Counted from the first letter of the stretch, positions 375 to 43,398 are shown. The stretch: 43,772 bases of DNA from an uncultured bacterium (GCA_964634505.1 CAZWLZ010000001.1:1-43772), one strand, 5' to 3'. Notes: generated by a model not told the origin, from the letters alone. Numbers and translations are program-made.

Positions 375-992
375 GTGACATATAGCAATAACAATAACAA
401 CACAAATAACAATAGTAGTAATAACATTAACAATAACAATAATATAAGTATTCCGAGCAAAAAAAATTCTGCTCGTCGAGAAATTCCTAAAATTAATAAT
501 AATATTCCTTATGCTGAACTTCGAGTTATTGATCCAGATGGGGAACAGTTAGGTATTATTACTCATAAAGAGGCGTTAAAAATTGCTCAGGAAAAGCAGT
601 TAGATTTGGTGTTAGTCAGTGAAACATCTAGTCCGCCCGTATGTAGAATAATGGATTACGGGAAGTTTAAATTTGAACAGGAAAAGAAAGCAAAAATACT
701 GCGCAAAAAACAACATACTGTCCAAGTTAAAGAAGTTAAAATGCGCTACAAAATTGACGAACATGATTACCAAGTAAGAGTTAGTCAAGCAAAACGATTT
801 TTGCAATCGGGGGATAAAGTTAAGGCAACGGTTAACTTTAGGGGAAGAGAAATTCAACATTCTCATTTGGCTAAAGAATTGTTGGATAGAATGGCACTAG
901 ATTTAAAAGAAATGGCTGAAATTCAACAAATTCCCAAAAAAGAAGGGCGTAATATGATTATGTTTCTTTCTCCCAAAAAATTAGTTAATTAG
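375..992 (+). CDS. infC: Translation initiation factor IF-3
   Basis: Strong IF-3 signature: [71 protein letters not shown]. The track start is GTG at 375 and adds an Asn-rich N-terminal extension. An ATT at 450 is an alternative start (see findings). Confidence 0.93.
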
Positions 993-1857: not shown

Positions 1858-2643
1858 TTATTTAACCATTAATTGTCTTTGACGTTCATATAAAAGTAGA
1901 GAATTGGCGATCGCCACGTTAAGAGATTCCACCTCATTAAGAAGAGGAATAGTAACTTTTTGATCAGCAATTTGATTTAAAGAAGAAGATAAACCCTTAC
2001 TTTCATTACCGAATAAAATTAAACTAGGAAGGGTAAAATCTAATTGCCAATAAGTTTTAGTGGCGGTAGGTAAAGTAGCAATAATTTGCATTCCTTGATT
2101 TTGATAAAATTTAACCACTGTCAGCAAATCATCAGAATTGATCATATTAATTTTAAACCATTCTCCAGCAGAAGCCCTCATAACTTTAGGATGATCAAAA
2201 TCAACACTATCATTACTAAGCCATAAACAATCAACATTAGTAGCCACTGCCGTGCGAATTATTGTACCTAAATTGCCGGGGTCTTGAATTGATTCTAAAA
2301 TTAAACCTAATTTGATAGACTCGGGCATTTTTTTTCGCCAATTATCCCGAGAAGCTATAGCTAAAACACCGTCTGGGTTAACAGTAGTAGCAATAAATTT
2401 AAGAATTTCTGGGGCTACAGTTTCTACTTTTAAAGCCAGTCTTGTTAAACTTTGCCATAAATTATTATTTTCTTGTTGCCATTGAGAAGTAGTAATTAAA
2501 GTTTTTAAAGGATAATTAATTTGACTGACTACTTCTAAGGAATTTTTACCTTCAATCAAAAATAAATTTTGTTTGTGTCTTTCTTTAGCATTATGTAATT
2601 TTCTAATTTCCTTAATCAAAGGATTTTTAATACTTGTTAACAT
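1858..2643 (-). CDS. TrmH/SpoU-family RNA 2'-O-ribose methyltransferase
   Basis: SPOUT motifs are present: LESIQDPGNLGTIIRTA, LILFGNESKGLS, IPLLNEVESLNVAIANSLLLYE. Length is 261 aa, typical of group 3 TrmH/RlmB-like enzymes. Confidence 0.85.
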   Translation of the reverse strand: MLTSIKNPLIKEIRKLHNAKERHKQNLFLIEGKNSLEVVSQINYPLKTLITTSQWQQENNNLWQSLTRLALKVETVAPEILKFIATTVNPDGVLAIASRDNWRKKMPESIKLGLILESIQDPGNLGTIIRTAVATNVDCLWLSNDSVDFDHPKVMRASAGEWFKINMINSDDLLTVVKFYQNQGMQIIATLPTATKTYWQLDFTLPSLILFGNESKGLSSSLNQIADQKVTIPLLNEVESLNVAIANSLLLYERQRQLMVK

Positions 2644-2880
2644 TTATTTATTTGACATTACTTTCTTTTATTGAGACAAAACCTTCGATTTTAGGAGATC
2701 GCCATTTCAGATTTGAAAGGTGATGCAGAATTAACCAGTTTTTGTCCTTTTAAATTAGTTTGAAAAATACTTGCTTTTCAGAAGCCTAACAGCTAACTTA
2801 AACTTAAGTAGTGATATTATAGGATGTTTTACCATGTATTTGTTTCTGGTAATTACAGCGGATAACCCTTAAATTAGCAC

Positions 2881-3531
2881 CTAGCGAAAAGTAAATTTCT
2901 CAAACCATGAACCAGTCATTTCTGGTAGCGGAAGTTCCCCATTAAGAGGTGAAAGGCAAATGATATAGCCCACTGAAGTTAGTTTACCCTCATTATCGTA
3001 GTCATCTAAGTCTGATTCGAGCTTTTCTTGATACCTTTCATATTCTTCATCATCAAGGGTTTCCATAAAAGTTGGACTTGATGAGTAAGCATAGATATTA
3101 ACCTCATAAAAATCGGGTGGTACATCTATTACTTGAAAAATCATAAAATTCTCTCTAGGCGGTTTTCCCGAAATTGCATGAGACAAATCTTCAGCGACAC
3201 AGCTACACAGTAAGATTAATTTCCCACAGGGAATATTGAGTTTCCAAGTAAGTCGGGCGCACCAGTCGTTCTGTTCTTGATTTGTTAAATCCCCAATTAC
3301 AAAAAGTGTTTTGCGATCTAAGACACAATAACCATTGAAAAGTATCGGCATACAAATCCCCTGATCTAATAAGGGAGCAATATCTTGGGCTGAACCGTTT
3401 AAAACAATGTCAGAAATTTGACTAGGAGTTAAAGCACTACCCCCCAAACTAGCGGAGGTAAGTACATATCCATCACCATCACAAAAGAAATAGGGAGATA
3501 TAGGAATGCGTAAATTAATTTGGTTTTTCAC
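2881..3531 (-). CDS. Hypothetical protein (216 aa) with an acidic C-terminal segment; co-oriented downstream partner of the zinc-ribbon nuclease gene
   Basis: Long ORF with a GTG start (complement of 3529-3531), 92 nt downstream of the 593-aa gene on the same strand. GC is higher than in flanking genes. I recognise no family. The acidic stretch reads LDDEEYERYQEKLESDLDDYDNEG. Confidence 0.6.
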   Translation of the reverse strand: MKNQINLRIPISPYFFCDGDGYVLTSASLGGSALTPSQISDIVLNGSAQDIAPLLDQGICMPILFNGYCVLDRKTLFVIGDLTNQEQNDWCARLTWKLNIPCGKLILLCSCVAEDLSHAISGKPPRENFMIFQVIDVPPDFYEVNIYAYSSSPTFMETLDDEEYERYQEKLESDLDDYDNEGKLTSVGYIICLSPLNGELPLPEMTGSWFEKFTFR

Positions 3532-3623
3532 GACTTATTAGAAAATTTCAAGTAAAAATAGCAATAAATGGGAATGTTAAGTTTTATACCTCAATTGAAA
3601 TATATTGGCTACTGGCGATCTTG

Positions 3624-5405
3624 TTAATCAGTCGGATACAAATGGCGGATAGGTGGCGTTTGTTTAGATGCTTTTCGTCGACTGAGTGATCTATTTTTCT
3701 TAGCACAGATAGGACACCACGTACCAAAAAGCACATTACTAGGTCTAGCATTCCATTGGTGGCTTTCTTGGCACTCCCAGAGAAGAGGGGTGATACTATT
3801 AACGTACTTTGTTGATAAACACTTCCCACCACGGGCAACTGCTACAGCGTGCATATCTTGGATATTTCTACCTCTGCCAAGACATTTTGGACACCAACTA
3901 CCGCTATTCTTTACGTTATTTGGTGCAGCTCTAAACCGATGACCCTTGGCACATTCCCATTCTAAGTGTTCAAATATCCCCAAGTATTTCTCAGAAATTA
4001 GTTTTCCATCACGCTCGAGTGCAATAGCCTGCAATTCTCCTAATTTATTAGGAGAGTAAACTGAGCTTAAGCTGACCTCTTTATTTTCAAAGTTAGAAGG
4101 TAGCGGAATACCATTTTTTAACAATTCCTCACTAATAAAAAATTTAACATTTTCAATGCCAAGTATTTCTAAAATGGATGGAACTTCTATAAGAGTTATT
4201 CCATTATTTCTGCATAAATCACGCTTTTTTTGATCATTTTCTTGAATCTTCTTTAACTTAGTTTTTGAAGAATCAAAGAATTTAATGCTTCTGTAATGTT
4301 GCGTTCCCTGATGCTCAAACGCAATCTTTAAAGTTTGAGAATAACCATCTAGTTCCATTTGATAACCATCAGAATTACGAAGCCAATTTGGTCTAGCCTT
4401 TTTGAAAGGATGCTCCAAAAGCTGTTCAAAAAATTCTCGACAGATACGTTCTCCTAATCCAGCACTGCAAGTAGTACACCAGCCTCCTCTAAAAATAACT
4501 GATGGAATTGTTTCCCAGCGATGTCCCTCCTGACATTCCCACAAAAGTTTCTTATTAACTCTTTCATAAACGGTTGACAAGCATTTTCCCCCACGTTCTA
4601 ATGCAATTCTTTGCATATCTTCGATGGTCTTTAATTGGTTTCCTGCACAAGTAGGACACCATTTCCCCCCATTGATAATGTTGTCAGCATTAGCCATCCA
4701 TTGATGACCTTCAGCACACTTCCATAAGAGATGGTCTTTAACATTAACAAATTTGACAGATAGGCATACACCACCCTTACTAACAGCAAATGTTTGCATT
4801 TCCTCTATCGTGTGCGTTTTTCGTTTTTCTGCACGAATTTTCAGAGCACATTTGGGACACCATCTTCCATTCTTGACATGATGTGCATCAGCTTCCCAAA
4901 TATGCCCCTGTGAACATTGCCAAGTTAATTTCTTGATGACACTTTCAAATTGAGATGATAGACACATACCTCCAAATGAACTTGCTAAGTCTTGCATATC
5001 TTTGACAGTATGCTTTCTCCGATTTTTGTCGCTTTTGGCTCGTCCACACACTGGACACCACCTGCCCAAAGTTTGAATATTCTGTGGAATAGCCTCCCAC
5101 TGATGTCCTTCTGCACATTTCCAAATGTGTTTGGTTTTCATGCCTAGAAAATTTTCAGATAAGCATTCTCCACCAAATTTACTTGCTAAGTCCCGTAAAT
5201 CCTGAATAGTTCTTCCCTTCCCAGCACAGAATGGACACCAGTTACCAGCCTTAAGATAATCTCGGCAAGATTCAAACTGATGTCCATGCTTGCACTTAAA
5301 AAGTAGCTTATTGGTACAATTTACATATTCATTAGAAAGACAGCAACCACCACGTTTTCTGGCTATTTCATGCAACTCTTCAAGCAACTGTTGTTTATCT
5401 CTCAT
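3624..5405 (-). CDS. Multi-repeat zinc-ribbon protein (5 N-terminal + 2 C-terminal repeats) with an embedded PD-(D/E)xK (Vsr/DUF559-like) nuclease core
   Basis: Seven ~60-66 aa modules fit GGxCLSxxY-x6-LxWxCxxGHxW-x13-WCPxC. The central segment reads ...YQMELDGYSQTLKIAFEHQGTQHY...LCRNNGITLIEVP, giving D353-x10-E364-x-Q366. The DNA-level motif GGACACCA (complement encodes WCP) recurs at 3712, 3889, 4654, 4855, 5053 and 5233. Confidence 0.7.
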   Translation of the reverse strand: MRDKQQLLEELHEIARKRGGCCLSNEYVNCTNKLLFKCKHGHQFESCRDYLKAGNWCPFCAGKGRTIQDLRDLASKFGGECLSENFLGMKTKHIWKCAEGHQWEAIPQNIQTLGRWCPVCGRAKSDKNRRKHTVKDMQDLASSFGGMCLSSQFESVIKKLTWQCSQGHIWEADAHHVKNGRWCPKCALKIRAEKRKTHTIEEMQTFAVSKGGVCLSVKFVNVKDHLLWKCAEGHQWMANADNIINGGKWCPTCAGNQLKTIEDMQRIALERGGKCLSTVYERVNKKLLWECQEGHRWETIPSVIFRGGWCTTCSAGLGERICREFFEQLLEHPFKKARPNWLRNSDGYQMELDGYSQTLKIAFEHQGTQHYRSIKFFDSSKTKLKKIQENDQKKRDLCRNNGITLIEVPSILEILGIENVKFFISEELLKNGIPLPSNFENKEVSLSSVYSPNKLGELQAIALERDGKLISEKYLGIFEHLEWECAKGHRFRAAPNNVKNSGSWCPKCLGRGRNIQDMHAVAVARGGKCLSTKYVNSITPLLWECQESHQWNARPSNVLFGTWCPICAKKNRSLSRRKASKQTPPIRHLYPTD

Positions 5406-5776
5406 CGATTGATTATTCTTACCTCAAACTAGTAAATGCTATCGATAATATTCTTTATATCCTTTGCGATAAATGAAGCTAGCTAACTTAGTAATTCTAT
5501 CATAACTGTTGCCTAACTGCATCTAACTAGCATTATTTCTGTACTTGGTAATTAATTATTTTTTCATTAATTTTCATTAATACCCTTAAAAATAAAGTCA
5601 TTACTATTTTATATCAATATTGTTAATATTTTTTTTAATAATTATTTACATTTGGAGATAGAGAAAAGTTTTTATACAATACAATTTTTAATAACAAATT
5701 ACCATAAAAATTAATAAATGTGTTATAAAATAAAATCTAAGTAATAACTATACTTTTGTTCAAATCAGCAAAAAAA

Positions 5777-6004
5777 ATGTTTAAAAAACCTAGTTTCGAT
5801 TCTTCTAAAATTATGTATCGTAGCGATGAATTATTAGATGCCGCTTCTAATCGCTATCGCATCACTGTACAAGTTGCTAAACGTGCCAAACAAAGACGCT
5901 TTGAGGATTATGATAATTTAGATGAAGTGATGAAACCAGTTTTACGGGCGATCGTTGAAATGGCTGACGAATTAACAGAAAATGATATTATTAGCGACTC
6001 ATGA
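5777..6004 (+). CDS. rpoZ: DNA-directed RNA polymerase subunit omega
   Basis: AASNRYRITVQVAKRAKQRR...MKPVLRAIVEMADEL is the cyanobacterial RpoZ signature. I prefer ATG at 5777 (75 aa, matching typical cyanobacterial RpoZ length and N-terminus) over the track's TTG at 5756. Confidence 0.9.
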   Translation: MFKKPSFDSSKIMYRSDELLDAASNRYRITVQVAKRAKQRRFEDYDNLDEVMKPVLRAIVEMADELTENDIISDS

Positions 6005-8253: not shown

Positions 8254-9858
8254 ATGTTTGAATCAGAAAAATTACTTTTTACTCCTGTTAAATCGGAAGA
8301 AAATAGTATTAAAATAGTTTTCGCTTTTCCTAATACTTATAGTGTCGGAATTACTAGCCTAGGTTATCAAATTATATGGGCAAATTTAGCCCAAAGAAAA
8401 GATGTAGAAGTTGCTCGTCTTTTTACTGATATTTATGAAAATTTACCTAAAAATCCAGATTTAATTGGGTTTTCTTTTTCTTGGGAATTAGACTATATAA
8501 ATATCTTAAATTTATTAGATTTTTTACAGATTCCTTTTAATACTAAAGACCGAGAAAATTATCACCCTTTAGTATTCGGAGGAGGCCCTGTTTTGACTGC
8601 TAATCCTGAACCTTTTGCTAATTTTTTTGATGTCATTTTATTGGGTGATGGTGAAAATTTACTTGATAGTTTTATTAATAATTATCAACAAGTAAAACAA
8701 GAAAATCGTGAAATAAAATTACTTCATCTTGCTACAATTTCTGGCATTTATATACCTAGTTTATATGAGGTTAATTATCATGATTTAGAGAGTGAAATTA
8801 AATCAATTTTACCTATTAACAAAAATGTTCCGATTGAAGTAGAAAAACAAACTTATCGAGGTAATATTTTGTCTGCTTCTACCGTTGTTACAGACAAGGC
8901 AGCCTGGGAAAATATTTATATGGTAGAAGTGGTTAGAAGTTGCCCTGAAATGTGCCGTTTTTGTTTGGCAAGTTATCTTACTTTACCTTTTCGTAGTGCT
9001 AATTTAGAAACTTCTTTAATACCTGCTATTGAGAAGGGTTTAAAAGTAACAAATAGGCTAGGATTATTGGGTGCTTCTGTTACTCAACATCCAGAATTTG
9101 AGTCTTTATTAGATTACTTAAATCAAGAAAAATATGCTGATTTACGATTAAGTATTGCTTCTGTGCGCACTAATACTGTCACGGAAAAATTGGCTACCAT
9201 TTTAACGAAAAGAAACACCAAATCTATTACTATTGCTGTCGAAAGTGGTTCAGAAATTTTAAGAAATGTTATTAATAAAAAGTTGAAAAATGAGGAGATT
9301 ATAACTGCGGTTATTAATGCTAAAAATGGCGGTTTAAAAAGTATTAAATTTTATGGCATGGTTGGTATTCCTACTGAAAATGACGCTGATTTAGAGGCAA
9401 CTATTCTGATGTTAGAAACTCTTAAAAAAGTTGCCCCTTCATTACGTTTTACCTTCGGTTGTAGTACATTTGTCCCTAAAGCTCATACCCCTTTTCAATG
9501 GTTTGGAGTTAATAAAGAATCTCAGAGGCGACTTAAATTTTTTCAAAAACAATTAGGCAAAAAAGGGGTAGATTTTCGTCCCGAAAGTTATAATTGGTCA
9601 GTTATACAGGCTTTAATATCTCGTGGCGATCGCCGAATAAGTAAAATATTAGAATTAACAAGAAATTATGGAGATACTTTAGGTAGTTTTAGAAGAGCAT
9701 TTAAAGAATTAAAAGGACAATTACCAGATTTAGATTACTATGTGTATAGTCATTGGAAAACGAGTCAAATTTTACCTTGGGAACATTTAAAAACAGTGTT
9801 AAATAAAGAGACTTTAATTAAACATTTATTTGAAGCAATTCCAGATCACAAATTATAA
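8254..9858 (+). CDS. Radical SAM protein with an N-terminal B12-binding-like domain (uncharacterised cyanobacterial family)
   Basis: CxxxCxxC cluster motif SCPEMCRFCLASY. N-terminal Rossmann-like region (IVFAFPNTY...VILLGDGE). Length 534 aa. Confidence 0.85.
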   Translation: MFESEKLLFTPVKSEENSIKIVFAFPNTYSVGITSLGYQIIWANLAQRKDVEVARLFTDIYENLPKNPDLIGFSFSWELDYINILNLLDFLQIPFNTKDRENYHPLVFGGGPVLTANPEPFANFFDVILLGDGENLLDSFINNYQQVKQENREIKLLHLATISGIYIPSLYEVNYHDLESEIKSILPINKNVPIEVEKQTYRGNILSASTVVTDKAAWENIYMVEVVRSCPEMCRFCLASYLTLPFRSANLETSLIPAIEKGLKVTNRLGLLGASVTQHPEFESLLDYLNQEKYADLRLSIASVRTNTVTEKLATILTKRNTKSITIAVESGSEILRNVINKKLKNEEIITAVINAKNGGLKSIKFYGMVGIPTENDADLEATILMLETLKKVAPSLRFTFGCSTFVPKAHTPFQWFGVNKESQRRLKFFQKQLGKKGVDFRPESYNWSVIQALISRGDRRISKILELTRNYGDTLGSFRRAFKELKGQLPDLDYYVYSHWKTSQILPWEHLKTVLNKETLIKHLFEAIPDHKL

Positions 9859-9899
9859 TTTATTATTAATTTTTAAACCAATAAATAACCAAAAATAAG

Positions 9900-10699: not shown

Positions 10700-12355
10700 A
10701 TGAGTAATCCATTTCGTGAACTTCAACAAGTATTTAACTCTTTTGGAAAACAATTCACTACGGAAATTAGTGCAGAAATTCAAAAATCTTTACAAGAATG
10801 GTTAAACACTCATGAATCTAAAGTCATTGAACGAAAAAAACTTAAACCCTCTAATGGTACGATGATGCAATGGTTTCATTGGTATTTACCCCCTGATGGC
10901 ACTCATTGGCAAAATTTGACAAAAGAAGCTAAAAATCTTGCTGAAGCGGGTATTACTGCCCTTTGGTTACCTCCAGCTTGTAAAGGCGGAAGCGGTGGTT
11001 ATGATGTAGGTTACGGAGTTTATGATTTATTTGATCTAGGAGAATTTGATCAAAAAGGCTCTATTCGGACGAAATACGGTACTAAAAATGAGTATGTAGC
11101 TGCTATTAAAAGCTGCAAAGAGAGAGAAATTGATATTTATGCTGATGTGGTTTTTAACCATAAAATGGCTGCTGATTATGAAGAAGAATTTGACGCCATT
11201 CCCTTTGATAATCAAAATCGCAATCATGCTTTAGGAGAATCTCGTAAAATTAAATCTTGGACAGGTTTCGATTTTAAGGGAAGAGGCGACAAGTATTCTA
11301 GCATGAAATGGCATTCTTGGCATTTTGATGCCGTTGATTTTAATAGTTATGAGCCGGATTTTAAAGCAGTGTGGCGGAGAAGTGAAAAAATCTTTGATAC
11401 TAAAGTTGATCTTGAAAAAGGCAATTATGATTATTTAATGGGTTGTGATTTGGATATTGATCATCCAGAAGTGCGAGGAGAATTAAAGTATTGGGGTGAA
11501 TGGATGTTAGATGAATTTGGGATAGATGGTTTTCGATTTGATGCGATTAAACACATTAATGGTGATTTTTTTCCCGATTGGATTGACCATTTAGAAGATC
11601 ATGTCAAAAGCCATATTTTTTGTGTAGGGGAGTATTGGAGTTATGATTTGAGTGCCTTAAGTTGGTATATTGGTAATGCTGGAGGGCAAGTTAATTTATT
11701 TGATGCACCTTTACATTATAATTTCCATCAAGCAAGTAAAGCTGGTAATAGTTATGATATGCGTTCAATTTTAGATGGTACATTAATGAAGCATTTACCT
11801 TTATTTGCCGTCACTTTAGTTGATAATCACGATACCCAACCTCTACAATCATTAGAATCTTTGGTGGAATCTTGGTTTAAACCTTTAGCTTATGCAATTA
11901 TTTTATTACGAGCTGAGGGTTATCCTTGTATTTTTTATGCTGATTATTATGGTGCTCATTATATTGATAAAGGGAAGGATGGTAATGAGTACGAGATTTG
12001 GATGGATTCTCATCAAGAAATTATCGATCGCCTTTTAGTTGCCCGTCAATATTTTGCCTATGGATTACAATACGATTATTTTGATCATTCTAATACGATA
12101 GGATGGACTCGTCTTGGCAATAAAGATTATCCCAACGCCATGGCTGTTATTCTTACTAATGGTGATGGTGGCACGAAATGGATGGAGGTAGGTAAAGCTA
12201 ACACTCTATTTTATGATATTACTGGTAATATTAATGAACCGATTAAAACCAATCAAGATGGTTGGGCAGAATTTCGCTGTAATGGAGGTTCGGTTTCGGT
12301 TTGGCTTGAAAAAGATGAAAATTTACCCGCTTTAGCTAAATTTTTACAATTTTAA
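10700..12355 (+). CDS. amyA: Alpha-amylase, GH13 (E. coli AmyA / Bacillus Termamyl-like), apparently cytoplasmic
   Basis: NGTMMQWFHWY, YDLFDLGEFDQKGSIRTKYGTK, DVVFNHK, GIDGFRFDAIKHI, CVGEYW and LVDNHDTQP are the GH13 conserved regions with the catalytic D/E/D. There is no signal peptide, and there is a ~50-aa N-terminal extension. Confidence 0.9.
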   Translation: MSNPFRELQQVFNSFGKQFTTEISAEIQKSLQEWLNTHESKVIERKKLKPSNGTMMQWFHWYLPPDGTHWQNLTKEAKNLAEAGITALWLPPACKGGSGGYDVGYGVYDLFDLGEFDQKGSIRTKYGTKNEYVAAIKSCKEREIDIYADVVFNHKMAADYEEEFDAIPFDNQNRNHALGESRKIKSWTGFDFKGRGDKYSSMKWHSWHFDAVDFNSYEPDFKAVWRRSEKIFDTKVDLEKGNYDYLMGCDLDIDHPEVRGELKYWGEWMLDEFGIDGFRFDAIKHINGDFFPDWIDHLEDHVKSHIFCVGEYWSYDLSALSWYIGNAGGQVNLFDAPLHYNFHQASKAGNSYDMRSILDGTLMKHLPLFAVTLVDNHDTQPLQSLESLVESWFKPLAYAIILLRAEGYPCIFYADYYGAHYIDKGKDGNEYEIWMDSHQEIIDRLLVARQYFAYGLQYDYFDHSNTIGWTRLGNKDYPNAMAVILTNGDGGTKWMEVGKANTLFYDITGNINEPIKTNQDGWAEFRCNGGSVSVWLEKDENLPALAKFLQF

Positions 12356-12399: not shown

Positions 12400-13284
12400 T
12401 TAAAATCCAAAAACTATTCCTATTAATAAAACAAATCCTAAAAAAACATTTTGCTTAAAAATTTCTCCATAAACAGAAGTTTCTAGTTCCTTTTCTCTTA
12501 AACAAATATATTGAATCATCCAGCCTAAAGTGGCGATCGCCCATGAAATGCCAAAAATAAGGTTTAAGTGCATTACCATGCCTAAATAAGCAAATAACCC
12601 CGTAGTCAGAGCAAAAAATAACCCTATAGCATCAGCCGTATAATCCCCAAAGAAAATAGCACTAGAATTGATCCCTATTTTTAAATCATCTTCCCTATCA
12701 GCCATAGCGTAAACCGTATCAAACCCTAAAGTCCAAGTAACAGTGGCTGCCCATAAAACCCAAGTATTAAAATTAAGACTACCCGTCAAGGCACTCCAAC
12801 TAATTAACACGGCAAAACCCCAAGCCAAAGATAAAATTAATTGAGGAATAGGGAAAACCCTTTTTGCTAAGGGATAACAGACGATTACAGGCACAGAAGC
12901 CACACAAAGCCAAAAAGTTAAAGTATTAAGATAAAAAGCTAATTCAGCCGCACAAAGTAAGGCAATAAAAACTACTACTAAGCCTACTTTCACTGATAAA
13001 TCACGAGAAGCTAGAGGACGATTTTTTGTTCTTTCTACTTTTCGATCGATGTCTCTATCCCATAAATCATTGATAACACAACCAGCCCCACTGGTTGCTA
13101 AACTACCAATTACAATTATTCCAATTAAAAGTAAAGGCGGTTTTCCTTCTCCTGCTAAAAATAAAGCCCATAAAGCTGGAATCATTAAAATTAAGCGGCC
13201 AGCCGGTTTATCCCATCGCAATAATCGGATAATTTTACTAATAAGAGATTCTGATTCTGTATTTATTTTTAATGGACTAACCAT
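12400..13284 (-). CDS. ubiA: 4-hydroxybenzoate polyprenyl (solanesyl) transferase, UbiA family (plastoquinone branch in cyanobacteria)
   Basis: NDLWDRDIDRKVERTKNRPLASR (NDxxDxxxD motif), a second Asp-rich motif YAMADREDD, and about 8 TM helices. Confidence 0.88.
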   Translation of the reverse strand: MVSPLKINTESESLISKIIRLLRWDKPAGRLILMIPALWALFLAGEGKPPLLLIGIIVIGSLATSGAGCVINDLWDRDIDRKVERTKNRPLASRDLSVKVGLVVVFIALLCAAELAFYLNTLTFWLCVASVPVIVCYPLAKRVFPIPQLILSLAWGFAVLISWSALTGSLNFNTWVLWAATVTWTLGFDTVYAMADREDDLKIGINSSAIFFGDYTADAIGLFFALTTGLFAYLGMVMHLNLIFGISWAIATLGWMIQYICLREKELETSVYGEIFKQNVFLGFVLLIGIVFGF

Positions 13285-21874: not shown

Positions 21875-21898
21875 ATTAATAATTTATAAATTATTAAT

Positions 21899-37996: not shown

Positions 37997-38367
37997 TTTT
38001 TTTGCTGATTTGAACAAAAGTATAGTTATTACTTAGATTTTATTTTATAACACATTTATTAATTTTTATGGTAATTTGTTATTAAAAATTGTATTGTATA
38101 AAAACTTTTCTCTATCTCCAAATGTAAATAATTATTAAAAAAAATATTAACAATATTGATATAAAATAGTAATGACTTTATTTTTAAGGGTATTAATGAA
38201 AATTAATGAAAAAATAATTAATTACCAAGTACAGAAATAATGCTAGTTAGATGCAGTTAGGCAACAGTTATGATAGAATTACTAAGTTAGCTAGCTTCAT
38301 TTATCGCAAAGGATATAAAGAATATTATCGATAGCATTTACTAGTTTGAGGTAAGAATAATCAATCG

Positions 38368-40149
38368 ATGAGAGATAAACAACAGTTGCTTGAAGAGTTG
38401 CATGAAATAGCCAGAAAACGTGGTGGTTGCTGTCTTTCTAATGAATATGTAAATTGTACCAATAAGCTACTTTTTAAGTGCAAGCATGGACATCAGTTTG
38501 AATCTTGCCGAGATTATCTTAAGGCTGGTAACTGGTGTCCATTCTGTGCTGGGAAGGGAAGAACTATTCAGGATTTACGGGACTTAGCAAGTAAATTTGG
38601 TGGAGAATGCTTATCTGAAAATTTTCTAGGCATGAAAACCAAACACATTTGGAAATGTGCAGAAGGACATCAGTGGGAGGCTATTCCACAGAATATTCAA
38701 ACTTTGGGCAGGTGGTGTCCAGTGTGTGGACGAGCCAAAAGCGACAAAAATCGGAGAAAGCATACTGTCAAAGATATGCAAGACTTAGCAAGTTCATTTG
38801 GAGGTATGTGTCTATCATCTCAATTTGAAAGTGTCATCAAGAAATTAACTTGGCAATGTTCACAGGGGCATATTTGGGAAGCTGATGCACATCATGTCAA
38901 GAATGGAAGATGGTGTCCCAAATGTGCTCTGAAAATTCGTGCAGAAAAACGAAAAACGCACACGATAGAGGAAATGCAAACATTTGCTGTTAGTAAGGGT
39001 GGTGTATGCCTATCTGTCAAATTTGTTAATGTTAAAGACCATCTCTTATGGAAGTGTGCTGAAGGTCATCAATGGATGGCTAATGCTGACAACATTATCA
39101 ATGGGGGGAAATGGTGTCCTACTTGTGCAGGAAACCAATTAAAGACCATCGAAGATATGCAAAGAATTGCATTAGAACGTGGGGGAAAATGCTTGTCAAC
39201 CGTTTATGAAAGAGTTAATAAGAAACTTTTGTGGGAATGTCAGGAGGGACATCGCTGGGAAACAATTCCATCAGTTATTTTTAGAGGAGGCTGGTGTACT
39301 ACTTGCAGTGCTGGATTAGGAGAACGTATCTGTCGAGAATTTTTTGAACAGCTTTTGGAGCATCCTTTCAAAAAGGCTAGACCAAATTGGCTTCGTAATT
39401 CTGATGGTTATCAAATGGAACTAGATGGTTATTCTCAAACTTTAAAGATTGCGTTTGAGCATCAGGGAACGCAACATTACAGAAGCATTAAATTCTTTGA
39501 TTCTTCAAAAACTAAGTTAAAGAAGATTCAAGAAAATGATCAAAAAAAGCGTGATTTATGCAGAAATAATGGAATAACTCTTATAGAAGTTCCATCCATT
39601 TTAGAAATACTTGGCATTGAAAATGTTAAATTTTTTATTAGTGAGGAATTGTTAAAAAATGGTATTCCGCTACCTTCTAACTTTGAAAATAAAGAGGTCA
39701 GCTTAAGCTCAGTTTACTCTCCTAATAAATTAGGAGAATTGCAGGCTATTGCACTCGAGCGTGATGGAAAACTAATTTCTGAGAAATACTTGGGGATATT
39801 TGAACACTTAGAATGGGAATGTGCCAAGGGTCATCGGTTTAGAGCTGCACCAAATAACGTAAAGAATAGCGGTAGTTGGTGTCCAAAATGTCTTGGCAGA
39901 GGTAGAAATATCCAAGATATGCACGCTGTAGCAGTTGCCCGTGGTGGGAAGTGTTTATCAACAAAGTACGTTAATAGTATCACCCCTCTTCTCTGGGAGT
40001 GCCAAGAAAGCCACCAATGGAATGCTAGACCTAGTAATGTGCTTTTTGGTACGTGGTGTCCTATCTGTGCTAAGAAAAATAGATCACTCAGTCGACGAAA
40101 AGCATCTAAACAAACGCCACCTATCCGCCATTTGTATCCGACTGATTAA
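38368..40149 (+). CDS. Seven-repeat zinc-ribbon protein with PD-(D/E)xK/Vsr-like nuclease core (mirror copy of 3624..5405)
   Basis: Exact mirror; identical 593-aa protein. Codons read directly on this strand: D353 = GAT 39424-39426, E364 = GAG 39457-39459, Q366 = CAG 39463-39465. Confidence 0.7.
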   Translation: MRDKQQLLEELHEIARKRGGCCLSNEYVNCTNKLLFKCKHGHQFESCRDYLKAGNWCPFCAGKGRTIQDLRDLASKFGGECLSENFLGMKTKHIWKCAEGHQWEAIPQNIQTLGRWCPVCGRAKSDKNRRKHTVKDMQDLASSFGGMCLSSQFESVIKKLTWQCSQGHIWEADAHHVKNGRWCPKCALKIRAEKRKTHTIEEMQTFAVSKGGVCLSVKFVNVKDHLLWKCAEGHQWMANADNIINGGKWCPTCAGNQLKTIEDMQRIALERGGKCLSTVYERVNKKLLWECQEGHRWETIPSVIFRGGWCTTCSAGLGERICREFFEQLLEHPFKKARPNWLRNSDGYQMELDGYSQTLKIAFEHQGTQHYRSIKFFDSSKTKLKKIQENDQKKRDLCRNNGITLIEVPSILEILGIENVKFFISEELLKNGIPLPSNFENKEVSLSSVYSPNKLGELQAIALERDGKLISEKYLGIFEHLEWECAKGHRFRAAPNNVKNSGSWCPKCLGRGRNIQDMHAVAVARGGKCLSTKYVNSITPLLWECQESHQWNARPSNVLFGTWCPICAKKNRSLSRRKASKQTPPIRHLYPTD

Positions 40150-40241
40150 CAAGATCGCCAGTAGCCAATATATTTCAATTGAGGTATAAAACTTAACATT
40201 CCCATTTATTGCTATTTTTACTTGAAATTTTCTAATAAGTC

Positions 40242-40892
40242 GTGAAAAACCAAATTAATTTACGCATTCCTATATCTCCCTATTTCTTTTGTGATGGTGA
40301 TGGATATGTACTTACCTCCGCTAGTTTGGGGGGTAGTGCTTTAACTCCTAGTCAAATTTCTGACATTGTTTTAAACGGTTCAGCCCAAGATATTGCTCCC
40401 TTATTAGATCAGGGGATTTGTATGCCGATACTTTTCAATGGTTATTGTGTCTTAGATCGCAAAACACTTTTTGTAATTGGGGATTTAACAAATCAAGAAC
40501 AGAACGACTGGTGCGCCCGACTTACTTGGAAACTCAATATTCCCTGTGGGAAATTAATCTTACTGTGTAGCTGTGTCGCTGAAGATTTGTCTCATGCAAT
40601 TTCGGGAAAACCGCCTAGAGAGAATTTTATGATTTTTCAAGTAATAGATGTACCACCCGATTTTTATGAGGTTAATATCTATGCTTACTCATCAAGTCCA
40701 ACTTTTATGGAAACCCTTGATGATGAAGAATATGAAAGGTATCAAGAAAAGCTCGAATCAGACTTAGATGACTACGATAATGAGGGTAAACTAACTTCAG
40801 TGGGCTATATCATTTGCCTTTCACCTCTTAATGGGGAACTTCCGCTACCAGAAATGACTGGTTCATGGTTTGAGAAATTTACTTTTCGCTAG
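40242..40892 (+). CDS. Hypothetical 216-aa acidic-tailed partner protein (mirror copy of 2881..3531)
   Basis: Exact mirror; GTG start at 40242. Confidence 0.6.
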   Translation: MKNQINLRIPISPYFFCDGDGYVLTSASLGGSALTPSQISDIVLNGSAQDIAPLLDQGICMPILFNGYCVLDRKTLFVIGDLTNQEQNDWCARLTWKLNIPCGKLILLCSCVAEDLSHAISGKPPRENFMIFQVIDVPPDFYEVNIYAYSSSPTFMETLDDEEYERYQEKLESDLDDYDNEGKLTSVGYIICLSPLNGELPLPEMTGSWFEKFTFR

Positions 40893-41129
40893 GTGCTAAT
40901 TTAAGGGTTATCCGCTGTAATTACCAGAAACAAATACATGGTAAAACATCCTATAATATCACTACTTAAGTTTAAGTTAGCTGTTAGGCTTCTGAAAAGC
41001 AAGTATTTTTCAAACTAATTTAAAAGGACAAAAACTGGTTAATTCTGCATCACCTTTCAAATCTGAAATGGCGATCTCCTAAAATCGAAGGTTTTGTCTC
41101 AATAAAAGAAAGTAATGTCAAATAAATAA

Positions 41130-42780: not shown

Positions 42781-43398
42781 CTAATTAACTAATTTTTTGG
42801 GAGAAAGAAACATAATCATATTACGCCCTTCTTTTTTGGGAATTTGTTGAATTTCAGCCATTTCTTTTAAATCTAGTGCCATTCTATCCAACAATTCTTT
42901 AGCCAAATGAGAATGTTGAATTTCTCTTCCCCTAAAGTTAACCGTTGCCTTAACTTTATCCCCCGATTGCAAAAATCGTTTTGCTTGACTAACTCTTACT
43001 TGGTAATCATGTTCGTCAATTTTGTAGCGCATTTTAACTTCTTTAACTTGGACAGTATGTTGTTTTTTGCGCAGTATTTTTGCTTTCTTTTCCTGTTCAA
43101 ATTTAAACTTCCCGTAATCCATTATTCTACATACGGGCGGACTAGATGTTTCACTGACTAACACCAAATCTAACTGCTTTTCCTGAGCAATTTTTAACGC
43201 CTCTTTATGAGTAATAATACCTAACTGTTCCCCATCTGGATCAATAACTCGAAGTTCAGCATAAGGAATATTATTATTAATTTTAGGAATTTCTCGACGA
43301 GCAGAATTTTTTTTGCTCGGAATACTTATATTATTGTTATTGTTAATGTTATTACTACTATTGTTATTTGTGTTGTTATTGTTATTGCTATATGTCAC
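42781..43398 (-). CDS. infC: Translation initiation factor IF-3 (mirror copy of 375..992)
   Basis: Exact mirror; identical 205-aa protein. Confidence 0.93.

Follow-up and report, generated by a model that had tools for sequence, protein, structure and literature searches.

A probable free-standing homing-endonuclease-like gene and a neighbor probably acquired separately, between trmH and rpoZ of a low-GC cyanobacterial chromosome

The DNA analyzed here (the window, 43,772 nucleotides (nt); GCA_964634505.1 CAZWLZ010000001.1:1-43772) comes from an uncultured bacterium and represents a low-GC (32%) cyanobacterial chromosome. Between trmH and rpoZ lies a 3.1-kb stretch with two genes, p593 and p216, named here for the lengths of their products in amino acids (aa), which an original prediction made from the sequence had described as a horizontally acquired candidate for an undescribed nuclease-based system, with the layout of toxin-immunity, defence, or selfish endonuclease cassettes. 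The reading we favor, at a probability of roughly 0.6, is that the stretch consists of two unrelated accessory genes brought in by separate horizontal transfers, and not of a dedicated two-gene system. p593 would be a free-standing homing-endonuclease-like gene, whose product is predicted to read a long DNA site with a seven-finger DUF4379/CapR array, and thereby to position a Vsr/EDxHD-type metal-dependent nuclease, with E319, D353, H365/H370, and D391 as putative catalytic residues, to cut the DNA. The p593 reading frame would run out of its own ~1.85-kb unit into whatever DNA lies downstream, and we infer that its spread is selfish and homing-like. p216, in turn, would have come from a Pseudanabaena-like donor, and would belong to a family whose members normally stand alone in unrelated neighborhoods.

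Domain content and predicted fold of p593

p593 (3624-5405, minus strand) encodes a basic protein (isoelectric point (pI) 9.2) with 32 cysteines. Pfam detected DUF4379 (PF14311, 'probable treble clef zinc finger') over six stretches of this protein (9e-25; 87.1 bits versus a cut-off of 24.5), and the CapR homology domain (PF21817) was above cut-off in the close homologues P0001, P0008, and P0015. Seven W-C-P-x-C units were located at residues 56, 116, 182, 249, 309, 504, and 563 (residue numbering is our own), and the zinc fingers are distributed so that five precede and two follow a central nuclease segment of ~135 residues. The five N-terminal treble-clef repeats, each of ~60 aa (residues 1-315; 4461-5405, minus strand), were assigned to DUF4379/CapR and were also detected as internal DNA repeats with a period of 177-201 nt, while the two C-terminal repeats (residues 451-575; 3681-4055, minus strand) were delimited by Pfam, internal repeats, and the W-C-P-x-C units. 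The repeat array is presumed to bind DNA, a role carried over from the study of similar proteins in phage group II introns (PMC12350094).

The segment between repeats 5 and 6 is a predicted Vsr/EDxHD-like nuclease domain of the PD-(D/E)XK superfamily (residues 316-450; 4056-4460, minus strand), identified from invariant residues, an AlphaFold2 (AF2) model, and comparisons with Foldseek and PHROG. Among 2674 p593 homologues, the segment is kept in at least 90 of the best 120, from cyanobacteria to Bacillus, and an alignment of 23 diverse homologues shows no variation at E319, R320, D353, G354, E364, G367, H370, D391, and K394. The AF2 model of the segment has a predicted local distance difference test score (pLDDT) of 90.3, and its best Foldseek matches in the PDB were to Escherichia coli Vsr (1vsr/1cw0; probability 0.99/0.97, template modeling (TM) score 0.54), with which it has an Asp/His/His/Asp active site in common. 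Unlike p593, Vsr is a single-domain repair enzyme that nicks at T:G mismatches, with intercalating Trp residues and a zinc site of its own, and without a zinc-finger array. I-Bth0305I (PDB 3r3p), the prototype of the EDxHD homing endonuclease family (PMC3239194), matched with a probability of 0.82 and a TM-score of 0.60 on the target. It resembles p593 in its Vsr-like fold, in the same putative catalytic set and spacing, and in its modular combination of DNA-binding and nuclease parts, but it carries NUMOD-type DNA-binding motifs and resides in a group I intron in phage recA, whereas p593 has seven zinc fingers and is intron-less; the similarity between the two is at the level of fold only (Foldseek E 0.4, 18% identity). 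In p593, D353 lies 12 residues from H365 and H365 lies 5 from H370, the same distances as in D196-N208-H213 of I-Bth0305I (PMC3239194), and the p593 pattern fits that of EDxHD enzymes, namely a Glu, a Mg-binding Asp, an Asn or His 12 residues on, a general-base His 5 residues further, and a second Asp, with the correspondence between the two proteins drawn by motif and spacing and not by residue-level structural superposition.

Phage protein families point in the same direction. phrog_559 ('HNH endonuclease') matched p593 at 1e-73 over both repeats and nuclease, and phrog_9084 ('homing endonuclease', 6e-11) and phrog_7140 ('intron encoded nuclease', 1e-7) matched residues 353-409. The nuclease core alone found matches in 53 phage genomes, several of them annotated as homing endonucleases, and the repeats found matches in 403 phage records and 113 plasmids, often at several places per record. 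Megaplasmids of Bacillus mycoides, B. thuringiensis, and Priestia (e.g., NZ_CP036030.1, NZ_CP036124.1) contained 5-9 separate p593-matching places per record, a pattern that points to single replicons bearing multiple paralogues, either of the zinc-finger/nuclease family or of its repeat.

An architecture of this kind was described in 2025 (Nucleic Acids Res; PMC12350094) for proteins of phage group II introns, in which three to five ~60-aa domains related to CapR/DUF4379/DUF723 are joined to an EDxHD/Vsr-like nuclease, and the combination was called a large unrecognised outgroup of EDxHD/Vsr homing endonuclease genes (HEGs). These endonucleases resemble p593 in having several ~60-aa treble-clef repeats with a Vsr-like domain of ~100-130 aa, and in having relatives in phages, plasmids, and chromosomes. 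They differ in that their nuclease is C-terminal, while that of p593 lies between repeats 5 and 6, and in that they are intron-encoded, while p593 is free-standing in a cyanobacterial chromosome; the likeness is drawn from the architecture as described. Bacterial members of the family are labeled 'zinc-ribbon domain-containing protein' by NCBI. The zinc-ribbon/nuclease identity given to the 593-aa protein in the original prediction was borne out by the seven DUF4379/CapR fingers and the Vsr/EDxHD-like domain, but the protein can no longer be called undescribed, since it falls in a family that is covered by Pfam, numbers more than 2600 proteins, and has a published architecture. p593 is a new, well-preserved chromosomal member of this recently recognized and biochemically uncharacterized homing-endonuclease-like nuclease family.

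The p593 unit and its spread

The p593 DNA has close counterparts in distant cyanobacteria of 43-50% GC, with nt identities of 89.9% over 1839 bp (contig L061), 88.9% over 1831 bp (L001-L003), and 82.2% over 1744 bp (Desertifilum, L004). The synonymous divergence (dS) to L001 is 0.40, and ratios of nonsynonymous to synonymous divergence (dN/dS) of 0.11-0.17 indicate that the gene is under purifying selection. Its GC content is 39-42% while that of the flanking DNA is 32% in the window, 46-47% in L004 and L061, and 51% in L001. Across five hosts rich in the HIP1 octamer, p593 contained a single HIP1 site versus the ~10 expected, and it was poor in HIP1 in almost all of the hosts examined.

The copies share defined ends. 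On the upstream side, homology starts ~75-82 nt before the ATG, and blastn alignments extend to 5487 (L061) or 5479 (L001) and then stop, delimiting a leader of ~80 nt (5406-5487, minus strand) that is probably p593's own promoter or 5' untranslated region. At the other end, all alignments terminate at window position 3650, 26 nt short of the stop codon and inside the open reading frame (ORF), so that the last nine codons (3624-3649, minus strand) lie outside the shared unit. Downstream of ...GCCACCTA, the sequences of the window, L061, L001, and L004 diverge; in each of these four copies the shared DNA stops within the ORF at ...AAACGCCACCTA, and each then continues through unrelated DNA to a stop of its own, with C-terminal tails that differ in sequence and length. 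The mobile p593 unit thus comprises leader plus ORF, and measures ~1.85 kb.

The gene downstream of p593 is different at each location: p216 in the window, a Transglut_core3-like ORF in L001, a glutaminase-like gene in L061, hicB in L004, phd/yoeB in L062, and a convergent AAA ATPase gene in L064. Several of these contexts are accessory in character (ParA/ParB, toxin-antitoxin (TA) modules, HNH, GmrSD), copies on Bacillus/Priestia plasmids are solitary with long spacers, and no flanking gene or target motif recurred across the insertion contexts. We detected no intron or intein around p593, and no Rfam match. In the metagenomic contig L001, a motif of 16 to ~20 nt (CTGGCRCTGAGTTYAAGGTTRT) occurs at 9876-9897, ~11790-11812, and 12451-12469, that is, first ~35 nt beyond the 5' end of the unit, a second time directly behind the ORF, and then inverted ~650 nt farther along; the Desertifilum copy (L004) is followed by a related sequence. 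The motif may be a site of targeting or recombination, or a short repeat of local origin. The window lacks it, and it was rejected as evidence of a target-site duplication here. Taken together, the sequence comparisons support horizontal acquisition of p593, and its movement as a single gene between cyanobacterial genomes.

An alternative account of the same data is that p593 benefits its host, as a defence/restriction-like or DNA-repair nuclease that selection maintains within accessory or defence islands. The low dN/dS fits this account, as do homologues located among TA modules and genes for HNH, GmrSD, and DUF1016/YhcG nucleases (L001, L004, L062), giant-virus homologues that have been called 'putative restriction endonuclease' (PMC5513546), weak BRCT matches in some p593 homologues, and the fact that Vsr itself is a repair enzyme. 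We nevertheless regard a host-beneficial role as unlikely, since p593 is a single-gene unit with its own leader and a composition independent of its host, no conserved partner methylase or sensor gene accompanies it, its relatives in phages bear annotations as homing or intron-encoded endonucleases, and the architecture is found inside phage group II introns (PMC12350094). A search of the DefenseFinder/PADLOC type, one of the follow-ups proposed with the original prediction, likewise lent it no backing, with PADLOC giving for p593 only PDC-M36B at an E-value of 0.014, which is at noise level, and nothing for p216.

p216 and its relation to p593

p216 (2881-3531, minus strand, GTG start) encodes an acidic protein (pI 4.2) without a match in Pfam, NCBIfam, PADLOC, or PHROG. 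Its 71 homologues are patchily distributed, mostly in cyanobacteria, with others in Sericytochromatia and a few in Acidobacteriota, Clostridia, and Krumholzibacteriia, and the family alignment has 26 invariant columns that include four cysteines (C17, C60, C69, and C102). The best relative, from Pseudanabaena sp., is identical at 81% of aa and 82.6% of nt, with homology limited to the ORF. In other hosts the GC content of p216 genes tracks that of the genome (e.g., 29% in a genome of 29.5% GC), but here it lies above that of the host, and dN/dS is 0.13. Because the identity to Pseudanabaena far exceeds that of host housekeeping proteins to their relatives, and because of the elevated GC and low dN/dS, p216 appears to have been acquired and to be functional. 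A profile search of 1.84 billion representative sequences extended the family to 183 relatives. In remote members (P0339-P0461), the p216 domain is embedded in much longer proteins, the longest of 1676 aa. Of 58 such relatives that were sampled, seven contained WGR and a few contained HEAT repeats, and no Pfam model covered the shared domain.

The AF2 model of p216 is confident (pLDDT 93.6), and by Foldseek it resembles CgnJ (6i86; E 2e-6) and the nuclease inhibitor ComJ, also known as Nin (4mqd; E 1e-3, probability 1.00, TM-score on target 0.55). The likeness to ComJ/Nin, to the Imm-ComJ immunity proteins (PMC3482391), and to CgnJ lies in the predicted fold, and p216 is in addition small, acidic, and located directly after a nuclease gene. 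p216 differs from ComJ and CgnJ in lacking detectable sequence similarity to them, in being ~60-80 residues longer, in carrying the four invariant cysteines, and in that its family was not seen beside nuclease genes at other loci. No Pfam search of p216, of 37 relatives, or of the 58 remote relatives made a sequence link to ComJ or DUF4261, and p216 itself displayed neither the Pfam ComJ model nor the W, F[DE], PF, Y, Y motifs of Imm-ComJ. Comparison of the p216 profile with PDB sequences found nothing, and the viral structure library gave nothing meaningful. The name 'DUF4261' that NCBI applies to one p216 homologue (P0171) could not be reproduced. p216 can be classed as a conserved hypothetical protein whose predicted fold offers an interesting lead.

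Association between the two genes was evaluated at 39 other p216-family loci (21 of them genomic and 18 metagenomic, with flanks of 4-8 kb where contigs allowed) and in five other p593 contexts. Loci retrieved by protein look-up added nothing but further parts of two contigs already in this set. By tblastn, no p593 relative was found at any of the 39 p216 loci, and no p216 relative in any of the five p593 contexts, whose copies are 67-89% identical to p593. When 692 ORFs neighboring p216-family genes at 43 loci (39 distinct DNA stretches) were clustered, no recurrent neighbor of p216 emerged, and what synteny there was proved to be lineage-specific. At one p216-family locus, from an uncultured bacterium of 56% GC (L016; 2-1060 and 8001-8633), a radical-SAM gene lies ~7 kb from the p216 gene; it is an orthologue, 64% identical, of the gene at 8254-9858 of the window, and has the same relative orientation as there. 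About 0.7 coincidences of this type are expected by chance for the number of loci and genes that were compared.

The original prediction had also drawn attention to a 10-nt direct repeat bracketing the pair. The repeat, AGCTAACTTA, is indeed present as an exact match at 2791-2800 and 5481-5490, but a shared exact word of at least 10 nt arose between AT-rich flanks of 237 and 350 nt in ~35% of simulations. It therefore provides no evidence of a target-site duplication and was rejected as one (P ~0.35). Since the closest relatives of p593 and p216 occur in different organisms, the conserved p593 unit ends before p216, the families do not co-occur, and the repeat is at chance level, the two genes do not appear to form a two-gene module. 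Their adjacency is unique to this genome. It most plausibly reflects two insertions that happened independently at one permissive spot, or the arrival of a homing-type gene next to an earlier acquisition. The nuclease system of two genes foreseen in the original prediction accordingly did not hold up. Of the module proposed there, what survives is that both genes look acquired, judging from their third-codon-position GC content (GC3) and from identities of 82-90% (p593) and 82.6% (p216) at the nt level, versus at most 71% aa identity for the host TrmH; that they were one module does not.

These findings bear directly on the possibility that the pair is a nuclease-inhibitor cassette, either toxin-immunity or HEG-antidote, in which p216 blocks p593 and both were captured together, comparable to Nin/ComJ acting against NucA/ComI in Bacillus subtilis. 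The ComJ-like predicted fold of p216 makes such a pairing conceivable, the more so as relatives of ComJ are immunity proteins for ComI-type nuclease toxins, a family reported in cyanobacteria (PMC3482391), and as the proteins carry opposite charges (pI 4.2 for p216 and 9.2 for p593). We consider the cassette improbable, however, because the adjacency does not recur, the Foldseek TM-scores of p216 are modest (0.36-0.56), the partner nuclease of ComJ, ComI/NucA, has a fold different from that of Vsr, remote relatives lead to WGR and HEAT instead of ComJ/DUF4261, and the four invariant cysteines point to metal binding more than to a simple plug. For the toxin-immunity layout of the original prediction, the fold resemblance speaks in favor and the lack of recurrence against. 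A variant, in which the p216 family is an unrecognized branch of ComJ-fold nuclease inhibitors and serves here as antidote of p593, in a pairing assembled ad hoc by the two transfers, seems to us rather less than probable as well, and we would give it long odds.

Several points weigh against the interpretation that we favor, and should be set beside the evidence for it. p593 and p216 have near-identical GC3, are in the same orientation, and are 92 nt apart with no predicted terminator between them; with this layout, the resemblance of p216 to a nuclease inhibitor is compatible with a functional pairing at this locus. The Foldseek E-values for the p593 nuclease domain are weak (0.05-0.4, with TM-scores of 0.46-0.60), and a profile of the domain searched against PDB sequences reached neither Vsr nor I-Bth0305I, and only noise. 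Nuclease activity, a target site, or a homing event has been shown for no member of the exact p593 subfamily, and a host-beneficial role would likewise be consistent with purifying selection (dN/dS ~0.15) and with the wide occurrence on chromosomes. Finally, a scan of genome collections with TrmH found no close relative of the host in them, so that there is no HEG-less allele to show the insertion itself.

Locus setting, composition, and significance

The two genes are co-oriented on the minus strand, as the original prediction had stated, with the sizes and spacers it gave. They lie between trmH (SpoU/TrmH-family methyltransferase; 1858-2643, minus strand; ORF listing and family scan) and rpoZ (5756-6004, plus strand), and are separated from these by AT-rich spacers of 237 nt (trmH/p216) and 350 nt (p593/rpoZ). 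The 92-nt spacer between p593 and p216 (3532-3623, minus strand) has a promoter-like TTAACA-17-TATATT that overlaps the p593 stop codon, by consensus match only, and no terminator-like site was predicted in it. Elsewhere the arm carries ordinary housekeeping genes of cyanobacteria (IF3, rubrerythrin, DUF2301, Ung, radical-SAM, amylase, UbiA, phytoene synthase, SufD/SufC, and DctP), and scans of ORFs and RNA families found no integrase, transposase, tRNA, or Rfam RNA family in the window, again as predicted. An independent 3955-bp assembly (L034; Logan SRR10912417) is 100% identical over window positions 3965-2400 and contains the same junction, running from the p593 C-terminus through p216, trmH, and rubrerythrin to infC. 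Because this independent sequence spans the junction without a difference, the arrangement of p593, p216, and trmH is genuine and not chimeric.

Gene-wide GC was 0.39 for p593 and 0.38 for p216, so that the 40-45% originally claimed for the interior of the insert was overstated and the contrast with the surroundings is weaker than it had seemed. Values for the arm's remaining genes span 0.25 to 0.38, and total GC alone is therefore unexceptional. GC3 is a better signal of foreign composition: at 0.296 (p593) and 0.295 (p216), versus a mean of 0.206 (standard deviation 0.033) for the other 17 genes, the two rank first and second of 19 (z ~2.7), an outcome in line with the acquisition originally proposed. 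The stretch free of HIP1 that had been put forward as a further sign is real, with sites at 1907 and 7218 and none between them, but it is weak evidence of foreignness because it also takes in the native rpoZ, a 208-aa ORF, and DUF2301, and because a gap of 5.3 kb is unremarkable at one site per 1.8 kb.

The same measurements address whether both genes might be ancestral to the lineage, and differ in composition through expression level, amino-acid content, or similar causes. Their total GC (0.38-0.39) does overlap that of some native genes (0.37-0.38), and the collections contain no close relatives of the host, hence no synteny comparison. The host TrmH is at most 71% identical in aa to any protein among 5.8 billion sequences, its best named matches (~60%) are from Geminocystis, Xenococcus, Stanieria, and Cyanobacterium, and in the three best TrmH relatives that were looked up (59-71% identity) the neighboring genes differ in each. 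Ancestry is nonetheless highly improbable. Compared with genes of distant cyanobacteria, p593 and p216 show 82-90% nt identity (dS 0.4-0.85), whereas identities between host housekeeping proteins and their best relatives are 60-71%; the two genes also hold the top GC3 ranks, and a genome scan resting on two peptide patterns turned up no member of the p216 family in species of Geminocystis, Cyanobacterium, Xenococcus, or Stanieria.

The window as a whole (1-43772) is its own reverse complement, with 0 mismatches in 43772, and every gene is present twice in mirrored form. The arms join at 21886/21887, where a short palindromic sequence rich in AT separates two convergent ORFs of 743 aa, and the two-gene feature recurs at 38018-41129, with p593 at 38368-40149 and p216 at 40242-40892 (both plus strand). 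We take the perfect palindrome to be, in all likelihood, a fold-back artefact of assembly or amplification and not a biological feature. The IF3 ORF (375-992, plus strand; mirrored at 42781-43398) has a GTG start and an Asn-rich, low-complexity N-terminal extension of ~40 residues, which may be an AT-driven expansion or an over-long ORF call.

For the stretch between trmH and rpoZ, the analysis disposes of the more ambitious proposal, a new defence or toxin system of two genes; the pairing of p593 with p216 does not recur elsewhere. Should p216 prove to be an antidote of p593, then p593-type genes would act as addiction-like modules rather than as simple homing genes. If, instead, the two genes were acquired separately and p593 is homing-endonuclease-like, as we favor, the locus would show, in a clean chromosomal setting, a member of a very large family of endonucleases that combine a zinc-finger array with a Vsr-like domain. 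The members of this family number in the thousands, across bacteria, phages, plasmids, and giant viruses, and have barely been studied experimentally. The near-identical copies in cyanobacteria of 32-51% GC would provide defined unit boundaries and several natural insertion contexts for the study of specificity and mobility, and seven ~60-aa zinc fingers on a compact nuclease may constitute a possible scaffold for programmable DNA recognition.

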